Shown here: positions 13,234 through 30,847 of the stretch, in pieces | Position numbering within the stretch: the stretch's first letter is position 1 | How the letters are laid out: each line of letters opens with the position of its first letter | Source: Escherichia phage phiWAO78-1 | Direction: 5' to 3' (one strand) | Sequence record: MW331437.1 | DNA: 44,551 bases | Program-made: the position numbers and the translations under genes | Notes under the pieces: model-generated | The model's input: the letters and a program-made list of their open reading frames with translations, nothing else | Told to the model about the DNA's origin: nothing | Databases searched by the model: none

Positions 13234-13260
13234 AAGGCCCCTTTTGGGGCCTTTCTTCTT
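13234..13260. terminator. Bidirectional rho-independent terminator (AAGGCCCC-TTTT-GGGGCCTT)
   Basis: 8-bp stem with T-tracts on both strands between convergent genes ending at 13229 and 13259. Confidence 0.7.
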
Positions 13261-13813
13261 ACAAACCTAATTTTAAAGCAATGTCTATAACGTTCGATTT
13301 AACGTCACCCGGTATGATATATGTGTCGCAATCTTTTACACCATCAACATCATACAAGTAACCACGGCTATCCCCGTCAAACGTATAGCCGTCTCGGTGC
13401 AAGCGAACAATTCGCACTTCATGCCCAGCGGCGACGATAGGAGCCACTTCACTGGCGAACCCACCGTCGGACACTACAAAAACTTCGTCGCCGTCGGGCA
13501 AGTTTTCAGCAAGATACTTACCGAAATAATCATCGCCGAATACCGGTTTAATGAATTGTTCAGAGATAGCAATCATGAATTGACGGCGAGACAAACCATT
13601 AAGGAATCCTTCTGGCTTTTCTTTCCGCGCCCGGTCGTCGTAGCCGTCGAGAAACTCGTGGTAAGCATCCGGGCCTAACGCTGCCAGAGCGATATTGAAC
13701 ATTGGATTCTTGAAACTGGTAGTTCCTTTCGCAAAGCCCATTTCTACCAGTGCCATAGCAAGTGTGTCTTTCCCGCAACCCGCAGGGCCATTAAGAATAA
13801 TTACATTAGCCAT
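13259..13813 (-). CDS. P-loop nucleotide kinase, deoxynucleoside-monophosphate-kinase-like
   Basis: N-terminal Walker A LNGPAGCGKDT at residue 7; size and GKDT loop resemble phage dNMP kinases (T4 gp1 type). Confidence 0.55.
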   Translation of the reverse strand: MANVIILNGPAGCGKDTLAMALVEMGFAKGTTSFKNPMFNIALAALGPDAYHEFLDGYDDRARKEKPEGFLNGLSRRQFMIAISEQFIKPVFGDDYFGKYLAENLPDGDEVFVVSDGGFASEVAPIVAAGHEVRIVRLHRDGYTFDGDSRGYLYDVDGVKDCDTYIIPGDVKSNVIDIALKLGL

Positions 13814-14298
13814 TATTTATCGCTCCCATGTGATTTTAAGCGTGTAGAGTTCCCGTTACAGTCGTATTCAGTAACCGCGTGCGTCGTGATTCCTAAGCCA
13901 CGGAAATGCTTAATCACCGCTGGCGAGTCGTCGAATGCACACAAGATTCTTTCCAGTCCGATAGCGCGCAACACCTCTTCTTTAATTACGATGTCTTTTC
14001 TGTTGTCGTGTTTGCTACGCATGATTAACTGATAAAATTCGACGCGGTGGCGCTGCAGCCACATTCTGGTTTCTTTTTCTGCATCATCACTGCGACCGGT
14101 TAAAATAATAACGGCGTATCGCCGATTAAGGGCGTTACATAGTTCGATATTATCTCTAATTGGCTCATCGTCTTTGCACGCCATGTTAAATGGCCTCCAA
14201 GCCCATGTTTCGCCGTAGTTATCTTTTGGCAGCAGGTGTAAACGATGTGTACCATCTGCTAATGTCCCGTCTAAATCGAAAATTACAATATCTTTCAT
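13813..14298 (-). CDS. HAD-superfamily phosphatase/hydrolase
   Basis: N-terminal motif I IFDLDGTLADG (DxDGT nucleophile motif) typical of HAD phosphatases. Confidence 0.6.
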   Translation of the reverse strand: MKDIVIFDLDGTLADGTHRLHLLPKDNYGETWAWRPFNMACKDDEPIRDNIELCNALNRRYAVIILTGRSDDAEKETRMWLQRHRVEFYQLIMRSKHDNRKDIVIKEEVLRAIGLERILCAFDDSPAVIKHFRGLGITTHAVTEYDCNGNSTRLKSHGSDK

Positions 14299-15317
14299 CC
14301 CAGCATCTCCGGTGAAATAGTTAAACGCGCAACCTCGCCATATTTGGCGCTATAAGTAATTACATTTGCGCTACGGCCCGACATCCATCCGCCGCGGGAG
14401 GCGTAGGCGTCTTTAGCCGCTAAGGTGCGGTGTTGCTCAACAATCATGTTACGGCTTTCTACAATCTTCTGATGGTGCAGGTGACCTACGTGTGCGTAGC
14501 TGTAGACGCTCTCGCCGAACGCTTTGCGGAACTTGGCAATCATAACTGGTTCGATAGCGTCGAATCGCGCCTTGTGTCCGTGGGTAAAGAACAGCGTCGT
14601 TTTGCCGTGCTGCACCATCTTGTAAACATCCGGCGACGTATCGACGAACACACGCGGCTCATTGTCGTACAGCGTACTGAACATCTCAGCCAACCAAATC
14701 ATACCCGATTCGTCGTGGTTCCCTTGCACGATAAGCAGTCGGACGTTTTTATGTTTAACGAGCGCCATATCAACAACACGGCGTACCATACGAATCATGT
14801 AGCGGACAAGTTTCTGATAACGGGTGTCGGCGTCAAGAGCGTGACCGCTTGCAGGTGTAACGGCAACCAGACTATCGAAGTGCGCGAAGTCGCCTAGCAG
14901 GTTAATAACTCCGGTCCCAGCGTCCGGCGCTTTCTGAAACGCCTCGTCGAACCATCGGGAGAACAGGCCCTCCGCGATTTTCATATCCCAGTCGTCGCCG
15001 CTCTCGTCGGCCCAGGCCAGCATACCGAGATGGAAATCAGACACAGTGTAAAGATTGAGTAGTTTATCGTCGCGTTTGGCGCGAATGGTTTTAACAGGTG
15101 CAACGGGGGTAATCTCTGACTTCATGCCTTCAATTACGGCTTTCATCAACTCGACCTGACGTTCGGCGTCGGTTTCTGTCTTAACCCATTGCAACTTAGT
15201 ATTGCCGAGTTCGTCCACCAGAGACGACGTCCCCTTAATCTTGTAGCCGTCCGGGACAAGGTGACTAACGTCGCGACCGTGACCTACGCCTTTCTTGGCC
15301 AGCTCGCTTTCGGACAC
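14295..15317 (-). CDS. Calcineurin-like metallophosphoesterase
   Basis: Ordered motifs D-x-H (VSDFHLG), GD (LLGDFAHFD), GNH[DE] (VQGNHDE), FTHGH and GHLHH; GTG start; roughly 80-aa N-terminal extension before the first motif. Confidence 0.7.
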   Translation of the reverse strand: MSESELAKKGVGHGRDVSHLVPDGYKIKGTSSLVDELGNTKLQWVKTETDAERQVELMKAVIEGMKSEITPVAPVKTIRAKRDDKLLNLYTVSDFHLGMLAWADESGDDWDMKIAEGLFSRWFDEAFQKAPDAGTGVINLLGDFAHFDSLVAVTPASGHALDADTRYQKLVRYMIRMVRRVVDMALVKHKNVRLLIVQGNHDESGMIWLAEMFSTLYDNEPRVFVDTSPDVYKMVQHGKTTLFFTHGHKARFDAIEPVMIAKFRKAFGESVYSYAHVGHLHHQKIVESRNMIVEQHRTLAAKDAYASRGGWMSGRSANVITYSAKYGEVARLTISPEMLG

Positions 15318-22799: not shown

Positions 22800-24833
22800 A
22801 TGTCAAGCGGATGCGGTGACGTTTTAAGCCTGGCGGATTTGCAAACCGCTAAGAAACACCAGATTTTTGAGGCAGAGGTTATTACCGGTAAGTCGGGTGG
22901 GGTGGCTACAGGGGCTGGTATCGATTACGCGACCAACCCTGTTACAGGCCAGACCCAAAAAACGCTCCCCGCCGTGTTGCGTGACGTTGGATTTTCTCCC
23001 GTGTCGTGGGACTTTTCTACCGGCGGTACGTTAACAGTTAATGACCGTGACAAAGTGGTGTACGACCCGGTTAGCAAAACATGGTACTCATACGCAGGTA
23101 CGCTACCGGTTACAGTTCCGGCAGGCTTTAGCCCCGTCGGTAACGCCGACTGGAAACCGCAGACCGACCCGGATTTGAGAAATGACCTGTCTGCCCAAGA
23201 CGGGTTAACTTTAATTGGTAGCGTTCCTGATGTCTTGGCGTTAGCTACGGTCAGTGCTTCGGAGGGGGATAGTATTATCCTCGATTCTTACGCGGGCAGT
23301 AACTTAGGCGGCGGCATTATGGTGGCGGTTTCGTCGACAGTTGATGTCGATAATATCGTAACATTTCCCGGTGATGGTGTTGTCTGGAAAAGGAAATTCT
23401 TCGATGGGTGTGCAACAGTGTATGACGCGGGGTTTAACGGCACGGGAGATTTAGCCGCGTACATTAATAAAATAAATTTGGCAGGTTATGACTGTGTGGT
23501 GCCTATTTCTGGTGAGATAACAACACCGATTGTTTTAGACATAGCAAAAGGCGCACTTATCGGAAAAAATAAATGTACTTTAACAGAATCTGCTTCCGTA
23601 ACTGGTGACTACTACCTAACCATTATTAACTCAAACACGGACTACACTAATAGAGATGTAATTAACGCAACTGCGTTAATGACTGGAGTGTCATTTGTTG
23701 GAAAAGGGGCCAGGAAATTGGCGATCGGTGGTTCTACCAGTGGGGAAGTCTCAGAGTTAAGAATATCTAATTGTGGGTTTATTTCAACAGCCGGAGTCGA
23801 GTTCCTTGATAATGCATACCGCGTATTGTTTGATAAATGTACGTTGTCCAGAAGTTTCACGGACTCGGTTATTTTCAATTCTCCTGCTAACGCTGGTGAG
23901 GCTATTAAGTTTAATCACTGTTGGATGGTGGATAACGGCGGACCATTTACGTTAACTAACGGGCAATTCATCTTTGATAGTTGCTCGCTGCCGGCGGGTA
24001 AGAGATCGGGATACTTTGACCCTGTATTGGCACTTTCTGATAACGCCCACGTAGTATTCGCCAACGGTAATATAGAGTACCAGCCGGGGCAAAGTTTCGT
24101 CGGATTCACGGTTGCAGGTAGCTCACGGCTGAGCATAAAAGACTCGACTGTCCTTCTGCCGTCTGATTACGCTTCGGCTCCTATTGTATGTAATGGCGAC
24201 GGGGTTGTCAGTCTTAGCAATTGCTCTTTGCCGTTATACGGCAGCACCTCCATCGCCACCGGGTTCCCTACCCGGCAGTTGGTAGGCGGCTTGAGCAAAA
24301 AAGTTATGTCACGCGGATGCTACCCTAGAGCTGGTTTTATATCTAGCAACTGGAATTTAGGGGCCATAGTAAGCCCATACATAAACAGTCTAAGCAATGG
24401 CTCAGGACAGTTCTTATCAATTTCAAACTGGACGCTATCGCAAACTGGTACAGGCACGGTAACTGTATCTGTAAACAATGACGTACCGAATACTCAAATG
24501 TTTACGACAGCGTTTTCAGTCACTACCCCGGCGTCATCTGCGAGCGCCAACTTCACACAGACTTGTGAAGATTGCGAGCCGGGTCGATATTTCCAGTTAG
24601 GATTTTGGGCTAAAGGGTTAGTGCCTGTGCTTGCAAGCATTAGGTTTTTAGATAAAAGTGGTAACGCCGTAGCGTCAAGTTCGGGGTACTCTATCCCGCA
24701 ATCCTCTACTTATGCTTTCTTTGCTTTCGTGGACACCGTCCCTCCTGGGGCCTTAACCGCTGAAATAAATTTTGCGATAGGGGGGTCAGCTGGTAGTTTC
24801 TCTTTACATAACGTCATATACGGTTTGATTTAA
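22800..24833 (+). CDS. Tail fiber / tailspike (receptor-binding protein, putative)
   Basis: 677 aa, last gene of the late operon, followed by a strong terminator; C-terminal half is Asn/Ser/Thr/Gly-rich with short repeats suggestive of a beta-helix; GAGGA SD. Confidence 0.6.
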   Translation: MSSGCGDVLSLADLQTAKKHQIFEAEVITGKSGGVATGAGIDYATNPVTGQTQKTLPAVLRDVGFSPVSWDFSTGGTLTVNDRDKVVYDPVSKTWYSYAGTLPVTVPAGFSPVGNADWKPQTDPDLRNDLSAQDGLTLIGSVPDVLALATVSASEGDSIILDSYAGSNLGGGIMVAVSSTVDVDNIVTFPGDGVVWKRKFFDGCATVYDAGFNGTGDLAAYINKINLAGYDCVVPISGEITTPIVLDIAKGALIGKNKCTLTESASVTGDYYLTIINSNTDYTNRDVINATALMTGVSFVGKGARKLAIGGSTSGEVSELRISNCGFISTAGVEFLDNAYRVLFDKCTLSRSFTDSVIFNSPANAGEAIKFNHCWMVDNGGPFTLTNGQFIFDSCSLPAGKRSGYFDPVLALSDNAHVVFANGNIEYQPGQSFVGFTVAGSSRLSIKDSTVLLPSDYASAPIVCNGDGVVSLSNCSLPLYGSTSIATGFPTRQLVGGLSKKVMSRGCYPRAGFISSNWNLGAIVSPYINSLSNGSGQFLSISNWTLSQTGTGTVTVSVNNDVPNTQMFTTAFSVTTPASSASANFTQTCEDCEPGRYFQLGFWAKGLVPVLASIRFLDKSGNAVASSSGYSIPQSSTYAFFAFVDTVPPGALTAEINFAIGGSAGSFSLHNVIYGLI

Positions 24834-24867: not shown

Positions 24868-25003
24868 ACTCTTCTGATAACTTCTCCAGTACAAACGCCA
24901 GTTGCGCATTAGCGGCGTCTCTTTGCTGCCGTAGTCGCAGAACCTCTTCTTCGAGTTCCTTGATACGTTTTTGCAATGCCGGAATCGGGGCTATGATGTT
25001 CAT
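24866..25003 (-). CDS. Small coiled-coil protein (45 aa, hypothetical)
   Basis: ATG overlaps the stop of the upstream Toprim ORF (ATGA); below ORF-track cutoff. Confidence 0.25.
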   Translation of the reverse strand: MNIIAPIPALQKRIKELEEEVLRLRQQRDAANAQLAFVLEKLSEE

Positions 25004-25515
25004 CTGGTAAATTTCCTCGCAAGATACGTTATTTCTTCTTCACAAAGTTCATCAAGGTCGTTTGACACAAATCCTCTGGTGAATGTTTTGCTGAACTTTA
25101 AGCCAGCTTTATCATTGTCGCCCGCGCACACCCAGTCATACGGCAAAAGTGCCATTTGCTGCCGTAGGTCGGTTGGTATATTTGACCCAAGTGCGCTTAC
25201 GGCATTGAACCCGCAATTCATCAAAGCAACAGCTTTAAATATGCTTTCGGTAACAAATACGGTCCCGCTTTCCGGAAGGTATTCGAGCCCCCATAAACAA
25301 GGTCTTGTTGTTCTGGTGAAGTACCGCGCGTCTTTAGGATTTTTACAGTTCTTTTCAGCATGTGGCTTGTAGTGCTGATATCCGCGTAGCTTACCGTCAA
25401 ACCCCCACAGGTAAAATGTAGCTACACCGGGGGCTAAGACTACTCGTAAACGGCCGGCGTCAAAACCACGTGACAGCAGATGTGCCTTAAGTAGAAACTC
25501 CTCGCCATCCATCAT
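25000..25515 (-). CDS. Toprim-domain protein (putative DnaG-like primase core)
   Basis: Conserved Glu in VFVTESIFKAV and DxD in CAGDNDKAG match Toprim catalytic motifs. Confidence 0.5.
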   Translation of the reverse strand: MMDGEEFLLKAHLLSRGFDAGRLRVVLAPGVATFYLWGFDGKLRGYQHYKPHAEKNCKNPKDARYFTRTTRPCLWGLEYLPESGTVFVTESIFKAVALMNCGFNAVSALGSNIPTDLRQQMALLPYDWVCAGDNDKAGLKFSKTFTRGFVSNDLDELCEEEITYLARKFTR

Positions 25516-26909
25516 TTCTTACCTCTGCGCTTCATATAATTAAGTAGTTCGTCCTGTACAGACCTTTTCTCGTCTGTACGCGCGGCGACAACTTCATCAA
25601 GAGTATCTCTGGCTATTATTTGGTAAATGAATACAGACCGTTTGTACCCAGATTGCATCTGCCTTACTGGCCCTATGCGCTCGATAACCTGCAAATAGTG
25701 TTCCAGGTTCCACCCCTGACTTATAAATGCCATGTGATGCCCGCCGTGTTGTAGTGACAGCCCGTGACCTGCGGAGGCCGGGTGTATCAGGAGCATAGGT
25801 ATTTCACCGCGGTTCCACGCTTCCATCTGCTTATTGCCCTTCGCGCCTTTAGCAAACGCCTGTGCCTGCGGGAATCGCTTAAGGATGCGCTCCAGTTCGT
25901 GCTTAAACTGATAGGCCACCAGCAACGGAGCACCCTGTAGCTCCTCAACAATGGACTCAAGCGCATCAAGCGCATCAAGTTTCGTGTCGTGCACTTTCTC
26001 CCATTCTTTGGTTGCTTCGCCGTCTGGTCCTGACACATATACGGCGCCGGATGCAATCTGCAAACACTTAGACGTCTTCGCCGCTGCGTTAGCCGCTTCG
26101 ACTTCTCCGCTCTCCAGTTCCGCAAATAACTTTTCCTCCATATCGATGTACGCCTGTCGCGCTTTCTTCGGCAGGTCGATTTCAACCGGTACGATAATCG
26201 GCGCTTCGCACCCGAACCACTCGGCGGCGTCAATCGTGAGACTAATGTCCTTCATCTTCTGGTGAATTTCATTATCCGCACCGGGGCGAGCATGATACTC
26301 GCGCGCCATTGCCGACTTACCTTTCTGTACCGAGTTAAACCAGCGGTCGGTGAATGCTGTGTACGATGAGCCGAGGCGCTCGCCAGCGTCGATAAACCAG
26401 TTCTGCCCCCACAAGTCTTTTAGGCCGTTTGGTGATGGTGTGCCCGTCAGGTTGATGAAACGCTTAACCTTACCGAACGCAACTTTGCTAAGTGCCTTAG
26501 CTCTCTTGCTACCACCAGACCGGCTGCGGAATGATTTAAGTTTCGTGCTCTCATCGGCAACGATAACAGTAAAAGGCCAGTCATCTTTGCCGTAGTAGTC
26601 AATCAGCCATTCGATAACTTCATAGTTAGTGCACACCACATTAGCGTCTGACTCCAGAGCCTCGATGCGGCGCTTCTCTGAACCGGTCGCATCTACGACA
26701 CTCAGGCATGGAAATCGCCATTTCTCTTGTTCTGCGGGCCATGTGCCGGATGCGACGCGCAACGGAGCGAGGATTAACACGCGGTCGTCGTCCGTAAGCT
26801 GCCCGTTGCGGAACAGGCGGTTTAATGCCCACAGTACGCTGCCAGTCTTCCCGGCACCCATGCTTGCCCATATGTTGCAGCGATGGTGCCGCAACATGAA
26901 CGAGGTCAT
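25512..26909 (-). CDS. SNF2-family (superfamily 2) helicase
   Basis: Walker A SMGAGKTGS, DExx-type box VIVADESTKLK, LTGTPSPNG, and C-terminal helicase motifs. Confidence 0.75.
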   Translation of the reverse strand: MTSFMLRHHRCNIWASMGAGKTGSVLWALNRLFRNGQLTDDDRVLILAPLRVASGTWPAEQEKWRFPCLSVVDATGSEKRRIEALESDANVVCTNYEVIEWLIDYYGKDDWPFTVIVADESTKLKSFRSRSGGSKRAKALSKVAFGKVKRFINLTGTPSPNGLKDLWGQNWFIDAGERLGSSYTAFTDRWFNSVQKGKSAMAREYHARPGADNEIHQKMKDISLTIDAAEWFGCEAPIIVPVEIDLPKKARQAYIDMEEKLFAELESGEVEAANAAAKTSKCLQIASGAVYVSGPDGEATKEWEKVHDTKLDALDALESIVEELQGAPLLVAYQFKHELERILKRFPQAQAFAKGAKGNKQMEAWNRGEIPMLLIHPASAGHGLSLQHGGHHMAFISQGWNLEHYLQVIERIGPVRQMQSGYKRSVFIYQIIARDTLDEVVAARTDEKRSVQDELLNYMKRRGKK

Positions 26910-26936: not shown

Positions 26937-27620
26937 TTAGACATGATTAGCCTCGTAAACTGCTTTTGCGAAACCCCGCGGAGTAAGGCTGCGGATTGTT
27001 TTTGTTCTGGCGCTCTTTCCGCCGAGTTTAGCCCAACCAGGGTTATCTCCGCTGCCCACGGCAACCTCGGCAACGTCGGGCATAACAAACCCATTTCCGA
27101 CCCACAGGCACGTCTTTTTAACATATGCGTCCCGCGCCGGGATAACGTCAGGGAACATTGGATGGGTGTCGTCTTCGGGTAAATAGCCGCCGTATTCGTA
27201 CGGGTTGAACGCGTAGTCAGGCTTACGCCATAAAGACGAAAGAACGCTAACAGGGTTCTCAATCATATAAGGTACGTTGTACTTTTTAGCCAGACGCGCC
27301 GCCACTTTGCATGTAATCACGGCCTCTACCTGGAACGTCGGATTCTTCTTCCGCTTCGTTTCAAAATGCGCCGCGCCGCTAACGGCTAAATCTGTGCACG
27401 GAGGGAACTCGAAAATAATATCCGGCGCGACCTCGAAGTCGAATTTATTATCAATCCACGCGTTTATATAGTGGATATTTTCATGTTCAACTTTTGCGCC
27501 CAATCGTGCGTAGTCTCCGTGGTCGGCGCCGTCGTAGTTGAAACAATAGCAAGTATGGCCCGCTTCTGCCCACGGTTGGGCCATAAGGCCCGAGCCGTCA
27601 AACAATGACCAGACAATCAT
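26937..27620 (-). CDS. DNA (cytosine-5)-methyltransferase-like protein
   Basis: FxGxG (SLFDGSGLM), PC motif (FPPCTDLAVSG) and ENV-like (MIENPVSV) in the canonical order; short (227 aa), so target-recognition region is small. Confidence 0.5.
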   Translation of the reverse strand: MIVWSLFDGSGLMAQPWAEAGHTCYCFNYDGADHGDYARLGAKVEHENIHYINAWIDNKFDFEVAPDIIFEFPPCTDLAVSGAAHFETKRKKNPTFQVEAVITCKVAARLAKKYNVPYMIENPVSVLSSLWRKPDYAFNPYEYGGYLPEDDTHPMFPDVIPARDAYVKKTCLWVGNGFVMPDVAEVAVGSGDNPGWAKLGGKSARTKTIRSLTPRGFAKAVYEANHV

Positions 27621-27808
27621 TTCGCCACCAGCACCAATTCTTTACGCCCGAACGCTGTAACGTTACCGGTTACATCTTCAATAACCAGTTTACCGTTCGA
27701 CTCGACGTATACCGTATCAACGGCAACAGGCCGACGGGTCTTAACGTTGAAAATCATGTCGTCCGGTACGAGGTCACGTGCTGGTTTGCGGTCGTATTCG
27801 TGTTTCAT
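27617..27808 (-). CDS. Hypothetical small protein
   Basis: 63 aa ORF with GGAATTGAG SD behind promoter H; start/stop overlap with the methyltransferase gene. Confidence 0.4.
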   Translation of the reverse strand: MKHEYDRKPARDLVPDDMIFNVKTRRPVAVDTVYVESNGKLVIEDVTGNVTAFGRKELVLVAK

Positions 27809-27838: not shown

Positions 27839-28138
27839 TTAACTATAATAGTTCGCTATTAGGTCGTCAACTTGTTTAAACGATCCGACGACAAAAACAT
27901 TTGCGCCACGTTTACGCATACGCTCATGTTCTCGCAGCTGGTGCGGGTCAGGCTTCGTGTTTTCGTCTTTCTTAACCTCGACGAACCAGATGATGCCGCC
28001 GGGGAGGATTACTAGCAGGTCAGGAGCGCCGGAGCGCCCCTCGAAGGAAAGTTTACGAACGAGGCCACCAATGGCCTCGAATCGCTCTTTTGCGTATTTC
28101 TGTACGCGCCCCTCTTTAGTCATGAGCGCAGAACCCAT
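27839..28138 (-). CDS. VRR-NUC domain nuclease
   Basis: 99 aa with PD-(D/E)XK-type core (APDLLVILPGG...FVEVKKDEN...HQ) characteristic of VRR-NUC proteins. Confidence 0.65.
   Translation of the reverse strand: MGSALMTKEGRVQKYAKERFEAIGGLVRKLSFEGRSGAPDLLVILPGGIIWFVEVKKDENTKPDPHQLREHERMRKRGANVFVVGSFKQVDDLIANYYS
27842..27870 (-). promoter_or_regulatory. Class-2 promoter H: TTGACG-N17-TATAGT with AATAG-N4-CTATT dyad in the spacer
   Basis: Near-consensus sigma70 hexamers at optimal spacing, read on the minus strand; about 30 nt upstream of ATG 27808. Confidence 0.6.
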
Positions 28139-28666: not shown

Positions 28667-30847
28667 TTACTTGGCATAACGTTTTAACTCCTGACCTTCC
28701 GCTACAAGAGGGAACCCCTCGGCCCACTCTGGTAATTCGCACATCAACCGTTCCAGTTCTGCGACATTGTATTCCGGTGAATCTGGTGTCTCGCAGATAA
28801 TCTCATCGTGTACGTGAAGCACAATCGGGTAGCCGTTTGCTTCAACGTTCAGCAGTGCATTAGCCAGCAAATCACGGCACAGCGCCTGAGTGCAGTTTTC
28901 CACCAGTTTACCGGAGTAGGTGTACTGGAAGCCCCACTGACGGGTTAGCTGATTTTCGCCCTGGTACTTGATGCGCACGTTAGTAGACACCTTCCCATCT
29001 TCGTCTGTCTCTTTCGACACGCTCAATCCTACGCCCGGGTAAGACATAACGCGACCTGACGGCAGCGTCATACGCAACCACCAACCGGCGACTTTGTTGC
29101 CGTTGTTGTCTGTCTCCGCGTTACGCGAAAACTTAACCCCCCGCGGCCCTGCGGTGAACTCTTTACCAGGATTGCGGATAGCTGCCATAGCCGCGTCTTC
29201 AATATCTCGCCAGAAAGCTACGGTTTCCGGGTGGGACTCACGCCACATGCGTTTGATAGCGTCACAGGTACGCCACACTTTCTTATCAAGAATATATGAT
29301 GGTCGGTCATCCTTTTCACCGGGACGCGGAGGTCGCTTGGCCTCCTGAATGCGCGCCCACTCGTATCCGCGTGCGGTAGCAGCCCATATATGGTCGGGGA
29401 AAGTACCGTCCATTGTTTTAGCCATATCAACGAGGTCAAGGCCGAGGTTCTTAGCAAACTGAACGAAAGCACCAACACCACCTGCGTAGCCGAGGCCCAA
29501 TTCACAGGCTTTACCAATCTGGCGTAAGTCTTTACGTTCCTTCTTAATGTAATCTGGATCCATGCCGAACATCTTACCTGCGGTTACGCAGTAAATATCA
29601 AGACCGGCGCGGAACGTATCGAGTGCGGTTTCTTCTCCTGCCAGCCATGCCAACCCGCGGCCTTCAACGTTAGAGTAATCGGCAACAACAAACTTATGCC
29701 CAGCTTCCGGTATGATGCAACTACGAACCGTCGATGCCGTTAGTTTGGCTACATCGAAACGGCGATGCGCGCGGCCCTTAAGTAACGCAGAAATCCCTTT
29801 ATCCAGTTCATCATCGTGATAGTACCCGCGTGCCAGGTTCTGCGGCTGGAAGCCTTTGCCAGCAAACCGTAGCGTACGCTTTGCCCCGCCATACTGGATG
29901 CAACCGCGACGGCGGTCGTCAGACGAGCGACCCAACAGCAGCGGGTTATATTTCGTTGACGCGGTGGACGCGGCCCCGAGGCGCATTTCGATAATAGTGC
30001 GGGCGTCGTCAGGTAAATCATCATCAGCCAACAGGTCGTTAAGCGTTGACTTCTGCGCGTTGTGGATGCGGTGCGCTGGTGCAAGTTCACGCAGAATCGG
30101 AAGGAAGTCTTTACCTGTAAGCGAGCCGCCGTATTTGCGTTGGGCTTCTTCTTGTAACTGCGCCTTGTGTTTCTCTACGGCTTCAATCGCGGCTTCTGCC
30201 AGTGCAACGTCAACCTTAAACCCGCGGTCATTGATTAACTGGTCAAGTTCCAGTACACGGTCTTCGAACTCGGAGTTACCCCACCGCGGCAGCTTATGGA
30301 ACACTTCACGCATCGCAGTGATGTCGCTCACGGCGTACTTGATGAACAGCGCCCACTCGTCCGGGTGTGTTTCAGCGGTGTAACGGCGGATTTTGTAGTT
30401 CTTCGGTGTCGGTTTAGAGAAACGCTGAATCAGCGCCTTACCACGTTTGTCTTTTGCATTGTCAGCAGACACCCCCAGCACTTCACACAATGCGTCAAGT
30501 GAACCCGGCAACGCGTGACGAAACGCCCAAATCATCGTATCAATGGTGTTGCTTACCGGAATATCAAAGCCCCAGCAGTGCTTCATGATGAGCCTATCGA
30601 ACATTGAGCCGTTGTGCCACACCATCTTGATGCGGCTGTTCGGCTTCACCAGGCGGCGTAACGCGCGGTGTAAATCTCCCGGCATGTCGCCGCCGTCGGT
30701 GCAATCCCACACCTGCACAGGCTCGTCATCAAAAGCATAGGTACAGATTAGCACTTCGGTAGTTGGATGTTCGGCGTAGGCATAAGAACCGACTTTCTTT
30801 AAATCGGCTTCGGAGAATGTTTCAAAGTCTAAGAACAGGTAACTCAT
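28667..30847 (-). CDS. DNA polymerase, family A, with 3'-5' exonuclease domain
   Basis: Exo I FLDFETFS, pol motif A DYSNVEGR, motif B RQIGKACELGLGYAGG, motif C LHVHDEI. Confidence 0.9.
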   Translation of the reverse strand: MSYLFLDFETFSEADLKKVGSYAYAEHPTTEVLICTYAFDDEPVQVWDCTDGGDMPGDLHRALRRLVKPNSRIKMVWHNGSMFDRLIMKHCWGFDIPVSNTIDTMIWAFRHALPGSLDALCEVLGVSADNAKDKRGKALIQRFSKPTPKNYKIRRYTAETHPDEWALFIKYAVSDITAMREVFHKLPRWGNSEFEDRVLELDQLINDRGFKVDVALAEAAIEAVEKHKAQLQEEAQRKYGGSLTGKDFLPILRELAPAHRIHNAQKSTLNDLLADDDLPDDARTIIEMRLGAASTASTKYNPLLLGRSSDDRRRGCIQYGGAKRTLRFAGKGFQPQNLARGYYHDDELDKGISALLKGRAHRRFDVAKLTASTVRSCIIPEAGHKFVVADYSNVEGRGLAWLAGEETALDTFRAGLDIYCVTAGKMFGMDPDYIKKERKDLRQIGKACELGLGYAGGVGAFVQFAKNLGLDLVDMAKTMDGTFPDHIWAATARGYEWARIQEAKRPPRPGEKDDRPSYILDKKVWRTCDAIKRMWRESHPETVAFWRDIEDAAMAAIRNPGKEFTAGPRGVKFSRNAETDNNGNKVAGWWLRMTLPSGRVMSYPGVGLSVSKETDEDGKVSTNVRIKYQGENQLTRQWGFQYTYSGKLVENCTQALCRDLLANALLNVEANGYPIVLHVHDEIICETPDSPEYNVAELERLMCELPEWAEGFPLVAEGQELKRYAK

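Follow-up and report, generated by a model that had tools for sequence, protein, structure and literature searches.

A compact orphan cytosine-5 methyltransferase-like gene in the replication module of a Jersey-like Escherichia phage, with a hypervariable loop as candidate target-recognition element

A functionally described relative of the gene considered here comes from work on retron Ec86, which is available as a preprint and was reportedly published later under the title 'DNA methylation activates retron...'. In phage K42, the genome of which is 95.4% identical to that of the BASEL phage KarlJaspers, all escapers of retron Ec86 had a disruption or potential disruption of a 711-bp gene named 'dcm' (bioRxiv 10.1101/2023.08.16.553469). 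Expression of K42 Dcm was toxic only in retron-carrying cells, and LC-MS detected an increase in the 5mC content of msDNA with wild-type K42 Dcm, but not with a C82A/E128A/K175A/K176A mutant (bioRxiv 10.1101/2023.08.16.553469). Such a gene was present in 34 of the 35 Ec86-sensitive phages of the collection (bioRxiv 10.1101/2023.08.16.553469). The CCWGG target of the K42 enzyme was assumed from E. coli Dcm and not mapped, and the change of CCTGG in msDNA to AATGG, ACTGG or CATGG abolished defence against K42 (bioRxiv 10.1101/2023.08.16.553469). The proposed sensing mechanism of retron Ec86 is built on the assumption of CCWGG as the target.

E. coli Dcm belongs to the same enzyme class and is the source of the usual gene name. 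It is a CCWGG methyltransferase of 472 aa, twice as long as the protein described below, and has a large target-recognition domain (TRD) and a vsr partner gene. The DNMT3 enzymes, which are eukaryotic de novo methyltransferases, recognise only CpG and have no separate TRD; they form dimers or tetramers with regulatory domains, and the catalytic domains of DNMT3A and DNMT3B comprise about 280 aa. CmoX of Synechococcus phage S-B43 (PDB 8yf3) is a DNA cytosine C5-carboxymethyltransferase of 372 aa with a full TRD and GRMVPP as motif X, and is encoded beside cmoA and a ligase gene (PMC12783734).

Here we analysed a window of 44,551 nucleotides, meaning the whole stretch of DNA from Escherichia phage phiWAO78-1 (MW331437.1), a complete Guernseyvirinae genome of the Kagunavirus/Jersey-like siphovirus type. 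At the nucleotide level it shares 87-91% identity with the Escherichia phages EC3-1, JSSK01 and K1ind and with Jersey-group Salmonella phages. The original prediction for this locus was an orphan cytosine-5 methyltransferase-like gene in the replication module, encoding a protein of only 227 aa with FxGxG, PC and ENV-like motifs in this order and having no cognate endonuclease nearby. All of these elements were borne out, the lack of an endonuclease within the ORFs scanned, and the reading as a whole is supported by the motifs, the fold, the match to PHROG 757, homology to the KarlJaspers enzyme and the lack of a restriction partner. The coding sequence (26937..27620, minus strand), assigned to PHROG 757 as 'Dcm-like', reads from an ATG at 27620 to a stop at 26937 and specifies 227 aa. 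An ATGA at 27617-27620 joins the methyltransferase start to the stop of an upstream 63-aa ORF, and a Shine-Dalgarno-like GGTGG precedes the start codon. The placement in the replication module is correct because the flanking genes, all on the minus strand, encode a Toprim protein (25000-25515), an SNF2-family helicase directly downstream (25512..26909; PF00176, E 6e-13), a VRR-NUC-type, Holliday-junction-resolvase-like nuclease (27839..28138; weak PF08774 match, 18.7 bits) and a family-A DNA polymerase (28667-30847). The 63-aa ORF (27617..27808, minus strand), translationally coupled to the methyltransferase gene through the ATGA, has no Pfam match and is 90-95% conserved in Guernseyvirinae.

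The methyltransferase ORF is a real gene, and a chance ORF is ruled out, because residues 1-226 match the PHROG 757 'DNA methyltransferase' profile (E 1.2e-85), homologs are present in 1520 phage records (tblastn) and in 5196 clusters at 90% identity, and dN/dS is low (0.03-0.11 against three relatives). The tblastn hits extend over Guernseyvirinae, Drexlerviridae, Klebsiella weberviruses, rV5-like myoviruses and others, and the 1170 representatives at 50% identity are usually 205-260 aa long. The family of compact orphan C5-methyltransferases to which the gene belongs is very widespread in phages, and the gene is an ordinary, previously annotated representative of it. A 98%-identical protein of Salmonella phage FSL SP-101 is annotated as 'Dcm' or 'DNA methyltransferase', and equivalent annotations stand at the same position in Jersey, JSSK01, EC3-1 and RP180. 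In these annotated relatives, the gene (89-98% protein identity) also lies between the helicase and the VRR-NUC gene, and it departs from the window allele by allelic differences only, which are concentrated in residues 157-199. Many other records label the gene 'hypothetical protein', which we attribute to the thresholds of Pfam, NCBIfam and PADLOC, all of which are missed. The value for annotation is small, given that this is a routine, previously named accessory gene of Jersey/K1G-like phages. Copies with 47-70% identity also occur in MG065688 (A110b, 44 kb), MG065661 (C9) and MG065649 (A143), which are labelled 'Campylobacter phage'; these host labels look doubtful in view of genome sizes like those of Guernseyvirinae, Drexlerviridae or rV5.

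The KarlJaspers (Bas06, MZ501090) gene bas06_0055, of 711 bp and annotated as 'Dcm-like C5 cytosine methyltransferase', encodes a protein that shares 60% identity with residues 2-225 of the window protein (E 2e-105), and the K42 enzyme is nearly identical to this KarlJaspers protein. The window protein is thus homologous, along its full length, to an enzyme for which DNA 5mC activity has been reported. The KarlJaspers enzyme comprises 236 aa against 227 aa here, and the two have the PPC, ENP and KK residues in common at a constant offset of 7; C82, E128, K175 and K176 of K42 Dcm, the residues replaced in the mutant, align with C75, E121, K168 and K169 of the window protein. Like the window gene, the KarlJaspers/K42 gene is an orphan in a virulent enterobacterial siphovirus. 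By contrast, KarlJaspers belongs to Drexlerviridae and not to Guernseyvirinae, its upstream ORF is unrelated, its gene neighbourhood holds a DUF3987-type helicase instead of the SNF2 helicase of the window, and its enzyme differs from the window protein in the loop of residues 182-198. The formation of 5mC, reported in the preprint for the K42 ortholog rather than for the window protein, may be carried over to the latter by analogy. Triggering of the retron through msDNA methylation is known for K42 only; on the same analogy, the presence of the gene in phage therapy candidates of this group might predict sensitivity to hosts that carry retron Ec86.

Three of the conserved motifs of C5-methyltransferases were read in the expected order I, IV and VI, as FDGSG, FPPC and ENP. 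Motif I, the AdoMet loop, is SLFDGSG at residues 5-11 (27588..27608, minus strand), assigned from the sequence and by hhalign to motif I of CmoX, HhaI and HaeIII, and its residues 7-11 conform to FxGxG. Across 78 family members, this motif is degenerate (L-F/Y-D-x-T/S-G, with a variable first Gly). Motif IV, FPPCTD at residues 72-77 (27390..27407, minus strand), contains the putative catalytic nucleophile Cys75, which is kept in 77 of 78 diverse family members and falls on the PC motif in alignments with HhaI, CmoX and E. coli Dcm. Motif VI, the ENV-like ENP at residues 121-123 (27252..27260, minus strand), aligned to ENV of HhaI and CmoX; Glu121 is conserved in 77/78, N122 in 73/78 and P123 in 78/78 members. 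Residue 28 (27537-27539) is Asn, a position occupied by Asp in 72 of the 78. Asp at this motif II position is the expected binder of the AdoMet ribose; Asn28 seems compatible with activity given that KarlJaspers Dcm has Asn there too.

The C-terminal half is less easily matched to known motifs. Motif VIII in its QxRxR form is absent; profile alignments end after motif VI, and the last strand has D-A-Y-x-K-K-T. Where canonical enzymes join the sixth strand to the seventh by a short QxRxR hairpin (motif VIII), the PHROG 757 family has a conserved 30-residue insertion, ending in D164-A-Y166-x-K168-K-T170-x-x-W173. This family-specific block, DAYVKKTCLW at residues 164-173 on the last beta strand (27102..27131, minus strand), is conserved at Y166 (78/78), K168 (77/78), T170 (75/78) and W173 (77/78). 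It is probably the functional counterpart of motif VIII, for which K168 and K169 may substitute. A second block, RSLTPRGFAKAV at residues 210-221 (26958..26993, minus strand), is followed through the family as RSxTPRGFAxAV (R210 in 76/78, P214 in 73/78, G216 in 76/78 and A220 in 72/78) and is listed together with the final helix. By eye it resembles motif IX (RxLTxRExAR), and an hhalign alignment of the C-terminal halves, which is non-significant (E 0.2), puts it on motif X of CmoX. Judged from these sequence comparisons, the block could be equivalent to motif IX, to motif X or to both. A Pfam scan of ten C-terminal fragments gave no match, and hhalign against HhaI, CmoX and a 28-sequence canonical profile gave no significant placement of motifs VIII-X.

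On sequence alone, the case for a C5-methyltransferase is less strong than the motifs would imply. The match to Pfam PF00145 reaches 13.7 bits over residues 3-101 only, below its cut-off of 22, and thus misses the gathering threshold, although a few family members have a precomputed PF00145 match. NCBIfam and PADLOC gave no match to the methyltransferase, and neither the sequence nor the family profile found a useful match among solved structures. A profile of 78 family members, aligned with a profile of CmoX homologs, M.HhaI and M.HaeIII (the latter two sequences entered by hand), gave 89.8% probability and E 1.8e-6 over residues 1-126 only, corresponding to motifs I to VI. A structure model has the fold of a C5-methyltransferase catalytic domain in a single domain, with strands at residues 2-6, 23-28, 49-53, 68-71, 118-123, 136-138 and 170-175; these would be the fold's seven strands. 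Its best structural matches are DNMT3 enzymes, with 14-16% identity to DNMT3A and DNMT3B, and CmoX is also among the top matches; M.MpeI, M.HaeIII, DNMT1 and DNMT2 rank lower.

With 227 aa and no separate TRD, the protein has the size and build of the compact 'Dcm-like' family (205-260 aa), which lies at the small extreme of DNA C5-methyltransferases. It is about 100 residues shorter than M.HhaI or M.HaeIII (PF00145), and unlike these enzymes it lacks a small/TRD domain and a partner endonuclease, and its motifs VIII, IX and X are unrecognisable by sequence. The compact module is also found in two much longer proteins of uncultured Caudovirales in BFVD, A0A6J5SE15_1 (1397 aa) and A0A6J5NPY6_2 (1126 aa), with TM of about 0.67 and 24-29% identity; of the two, one carries the annotation 'Helicase/UvrB, N-terminal' and the other is listed as uncharacterized.

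The original prediction had further suggested a compact or unusual TRD. As anatomy this is supported, since a hypervariable loop at residues 182-198 (27027..27077, minus strand) occupies the position of the TRD in canonical enzymes and is a candidate target-recognition element. In the order of the chain, the last strand is followed by this loop and then by the RSxTPRGFAxAV block on the final helix. No other part of the protein is hypervariable; column entropy in the loop is 1.12, compared with 0.26 on average, among homologs sharing 87% identity or more. Nearly all close homologs differ at residues ~183-193, dozens of loop variants occur on backbones that are 93-98% identical elsewhere, and the length of the loop varies across the family. 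Compared with the CTH7/JSSK01 allele, a segment of residues 157-199 (27027-27150 for residues ~157-198) has been replaced wholesale (dN 0.44, dS saturated), whereas dN/dS outside the segment is 0.03. We infer that loop 182-198 might contact or read DNA. Such a recombining loop offers a simple system for studying how a methyltransferase nearly devoid of a TRD reads DNA, and compact enzymes of this kind are a possible source of methylation tools.

The window protein, a member of the compact phage family PHROG 757, is very probably an active stand-alone AdoMet-dependent DNA cytosine-5 methyltransferase. Against this reading stand the sub-threshold PF00145 score and the lack of NCBIfam, PADLOC and solved-structure matches, motifs VIII and X that are unrecognisable by sequence, Asn28 in place of the usual Asp, and evidence of activity that was obtained, in a preprint, with an ortholog of 60% identity. 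Following the mechanism of the C5-methyltransferase fold, the target cytosine would be flipped out, Cys75 of the PPC in motif IV would attack C6, and Glu121 of the ENP in motif VI would protonate N3. The methyl group would then pass to C5 from AdoMet, bound by the N-terminal Rossmann half, and the enzyme would be released by beta-elimination. With a single catalytic domain and no separate TRD, recognition would probably be achieved by the conserved insertion and strand at residues 139-181 together with the hypervariable loop 182-198. Co-transcribed with the replication genes, the enzyme would methylate replicating phage DNA, plus any other cellular DNA, at a short motif. The likeliest benefit would be protection from restriction that is sensitive to cytosine methylation, and a cost, documented in relatives, would be that the methylation is sensed by retron Ec86.

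The chemistry and the substrate could nevertheless differ from those of a DNA methyltransferase. CmoX is defined by xPPC and an Arg in motif X and is a top structural match, which led us to consider a CmoX-like transfer of another group, for example carboxymethyl from carboxy-SAM, the product of the host CmoA, as the first step of a hypermodification. The motif here is FPPC and not SPPC, any equivalence of R210 or R215 with R350 of CmoX would depend on the C-terminal alignment with its non-significant E of 0.2, and DNMT3A, which uses SAM, also has Arg at this place in motif X. Neither the scanned ORFs of the window nor the annotated relative encode a CmoA, a CmoY-type ligase, a TET protein or a glycosyltransferase; the combination of SPPC, motif X Arg and adjacent cmoA and ligase genes that characterises CmoX is thus not found. 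Moreover, the K42 ortholog yielded 5mC by LC-MS in E. coli, a host whose own CmoA can supply carboxy-SAM. Because of the FPPC motif, the lacking gene context, the weak C-terminal alignment and this 5mC, we consider a CmoX-like activity very improbable. The same reasons make it unlikely that the protein has the methyltransferase fold but does not methylate DNA, being instead either catalytically inactive, with a DNA-binding or regulatory function, or a DNMT2-like RNA (tRNA) m5C methyltransferase. The Pfam score below threshold, motifs VIII and X that are degenerate or missing by sequence, Asn at the conserved Asp28 position and the presence of DNMT2 among the structural and sequence matches would all fit such a protein, to which we assign only a marginal probability. 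We therefore retain an active DNA cytosine-5 methyltransferase as the preferred reading and turn to its target and role.

An active enzyme need not share the specificity of host Dcm. Orthology with E. coli K-12 Dcm was rejected: the best BLASTP E value was 1.6, and hhalign aligned the PC-ENV core only (E 0.22). With no detectable pairwise similarity, neither orthology to E. coli Dcm nor a shared specificity can be inferred. It is quite possible, if not the favoured case, that the target is a motif shorter than or different from CCWGG that is set by loop 182-198, and alleles may differ in it. Besides the lack of similarity to K-12 Dcm, such a target is suggested by the DNMT3 enzymes as best structural matches, with their CpG-only recognition, and by the hypervariability and cassette-like exchange of the loop. 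In addition, MG1655, the host of the retron study, is dcm+, a point on which the paper is silent, and low 5mC in the control msDNA of such a host is hard to square with identical specificity; since the motif was also an assumption, CCWGG is not adopted as the target here. In that study, retron activity set in only with expression of the phage enzyme (bioRxiv 10.1101/2023.08.16.553469). Conversely, the CCTGG changes in msDNA that abolished defence against K42 are consistent with methylation inside that motif, and the variability of the loop could mean a mere lack of constraint. CCWGG is not depleted in the window genome (75 observed, 83 expected), as expected if these sites were protected, though this is also the default. 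In its most far-reaching form, the proposal is that a hypervariable cassette loop of ~10-17 residues is the whole specificity determinant and confers a short or relaxed non-CCWGG motif that varies by allele; we put this forward tentatively and regard it as rather doubtful. If it were true, both the 'Dcm' annotation and the assumption about the trigger of retron Ec86 would be wrong in detail. Irrespective of the target, the role of an active enzyme may lie outside restriction evasion, in marking DNA for packaging or replication, in interference with host expression or repair, or in blunting other defences. E. coli K-12 (in the record of which the dcm gene is annotated) and Salmonella already methylate CCWGG, and a phage gene with the specificity of host Dcm would be largely redundant. 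The BASEL study saw no simple correlation of these genes with restriction phenotypes, a point that also speaks against an anti-restriction role, and the gene is located in a replication operon. Toxicity on over-expression has been reported (bioRxiv 10.1101/2023.08.16.553469). Still, protection against restriction by orphan methyltransferases is well documented in phages, the lactococcal 936-type phages being one example (PMC4190342), many other short palindromes are strongly avoided in the genome while several C-containing ones are not, and we found no evidence for an alternative role. We therefore regard a role other than restriction evasion as unlikely; by analogy, an anti-restriction role would be the standard expectation for an orphan phage methyltransferase.

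Site avoidance was also considered as a guide to the target and proved uninformative, in that C-containing sites other than CCWGG are likewise not depleted. Depleted in the window are GGWCC, GGCC, GGNCC, CTGCAG, GAATTC, AGCT and RCCGGY, and not depleted, along with CCWGG, are CCGG, GCGC, GCNGC and GCWGC. The non-depletion of CCWGG is compatible with protection, yet is not evidence for it. A literature search found no methylome or restriction-digest data on Guernseyvirinae. As a separate observation, GATC is almost absent from the whole window (1-44551), with 11 sites against ~159 expected under a second-order Markov model (z = -11.8). GATC avoidance is a trait of enterobacterial phages lacking Dam, and no other DNA methyltransferase is annotated in the relative JSSK01.

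The gene is an orphan, and the encoded cognate endonuclease that would make it part of a type II restriction-modification system is not present: no restriction endonuclease was found in Pfam and PADLOC scans of the non-structural window ORFs of at least 150 aa or in the fully annotated relative JSSK01. These scans yielded a DUF2800/PD-(D/E)XK exonuclease (Cas4-like, recombination), an Enc34-type ssDNA-binding protein, an AAA_25 primase-helicase, a HAD-PNKP phosphatase, a calcineurin-like phosphoesterase, a lysozyme and the VRR-NUC protein. The VRR-NUC protein was rejected as a cognate restriction enzyme; it is called 'restriction endonuclease' in some records, yet it is a nuclease of the Holliday-junction-resolvase type, is named VRR-NUC or Holliday junction resolvase in relatives and has no PADLOC match. 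Similarly, the 63-aa ORF was dismissed as a conserved partner or specificity subunit, since the Drexlerviridae enzyme is preceded by an unrelated ORF. A functional pair of methyltransferase and helicase was discarded as well, as no similarity links the SNF2 helicase to the helicase of DUF3987 type that lies close to the KarlJaspers gene; the adjacency of the SNF2 helicase reflects the replication module only.

Two regions outside the replication module were also noted. The tailspike (22800-24833, plus strand; 677 aa) has only its first ~115 residues, the adapter domain, in common with the FSL SP-101 tailspike and falls far short of the 984 aa that the endosialidase has in the closest K1-specific relatives. 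These two features suggest that the receptor-binding part has been swapped and make the host uncertain. Within the plus-strand structural module, a minus-strand island at 13259-15317 encodes a 184-aa protein with no family match, a HAD-type PNKP-like phosphatase of 161 aa (PF25109, E 5e-19) and a calcineurin-like phosphoesterase of 340 aa, and could represent a cassette for nucleic-acid end repair or nucleotide metabolism.
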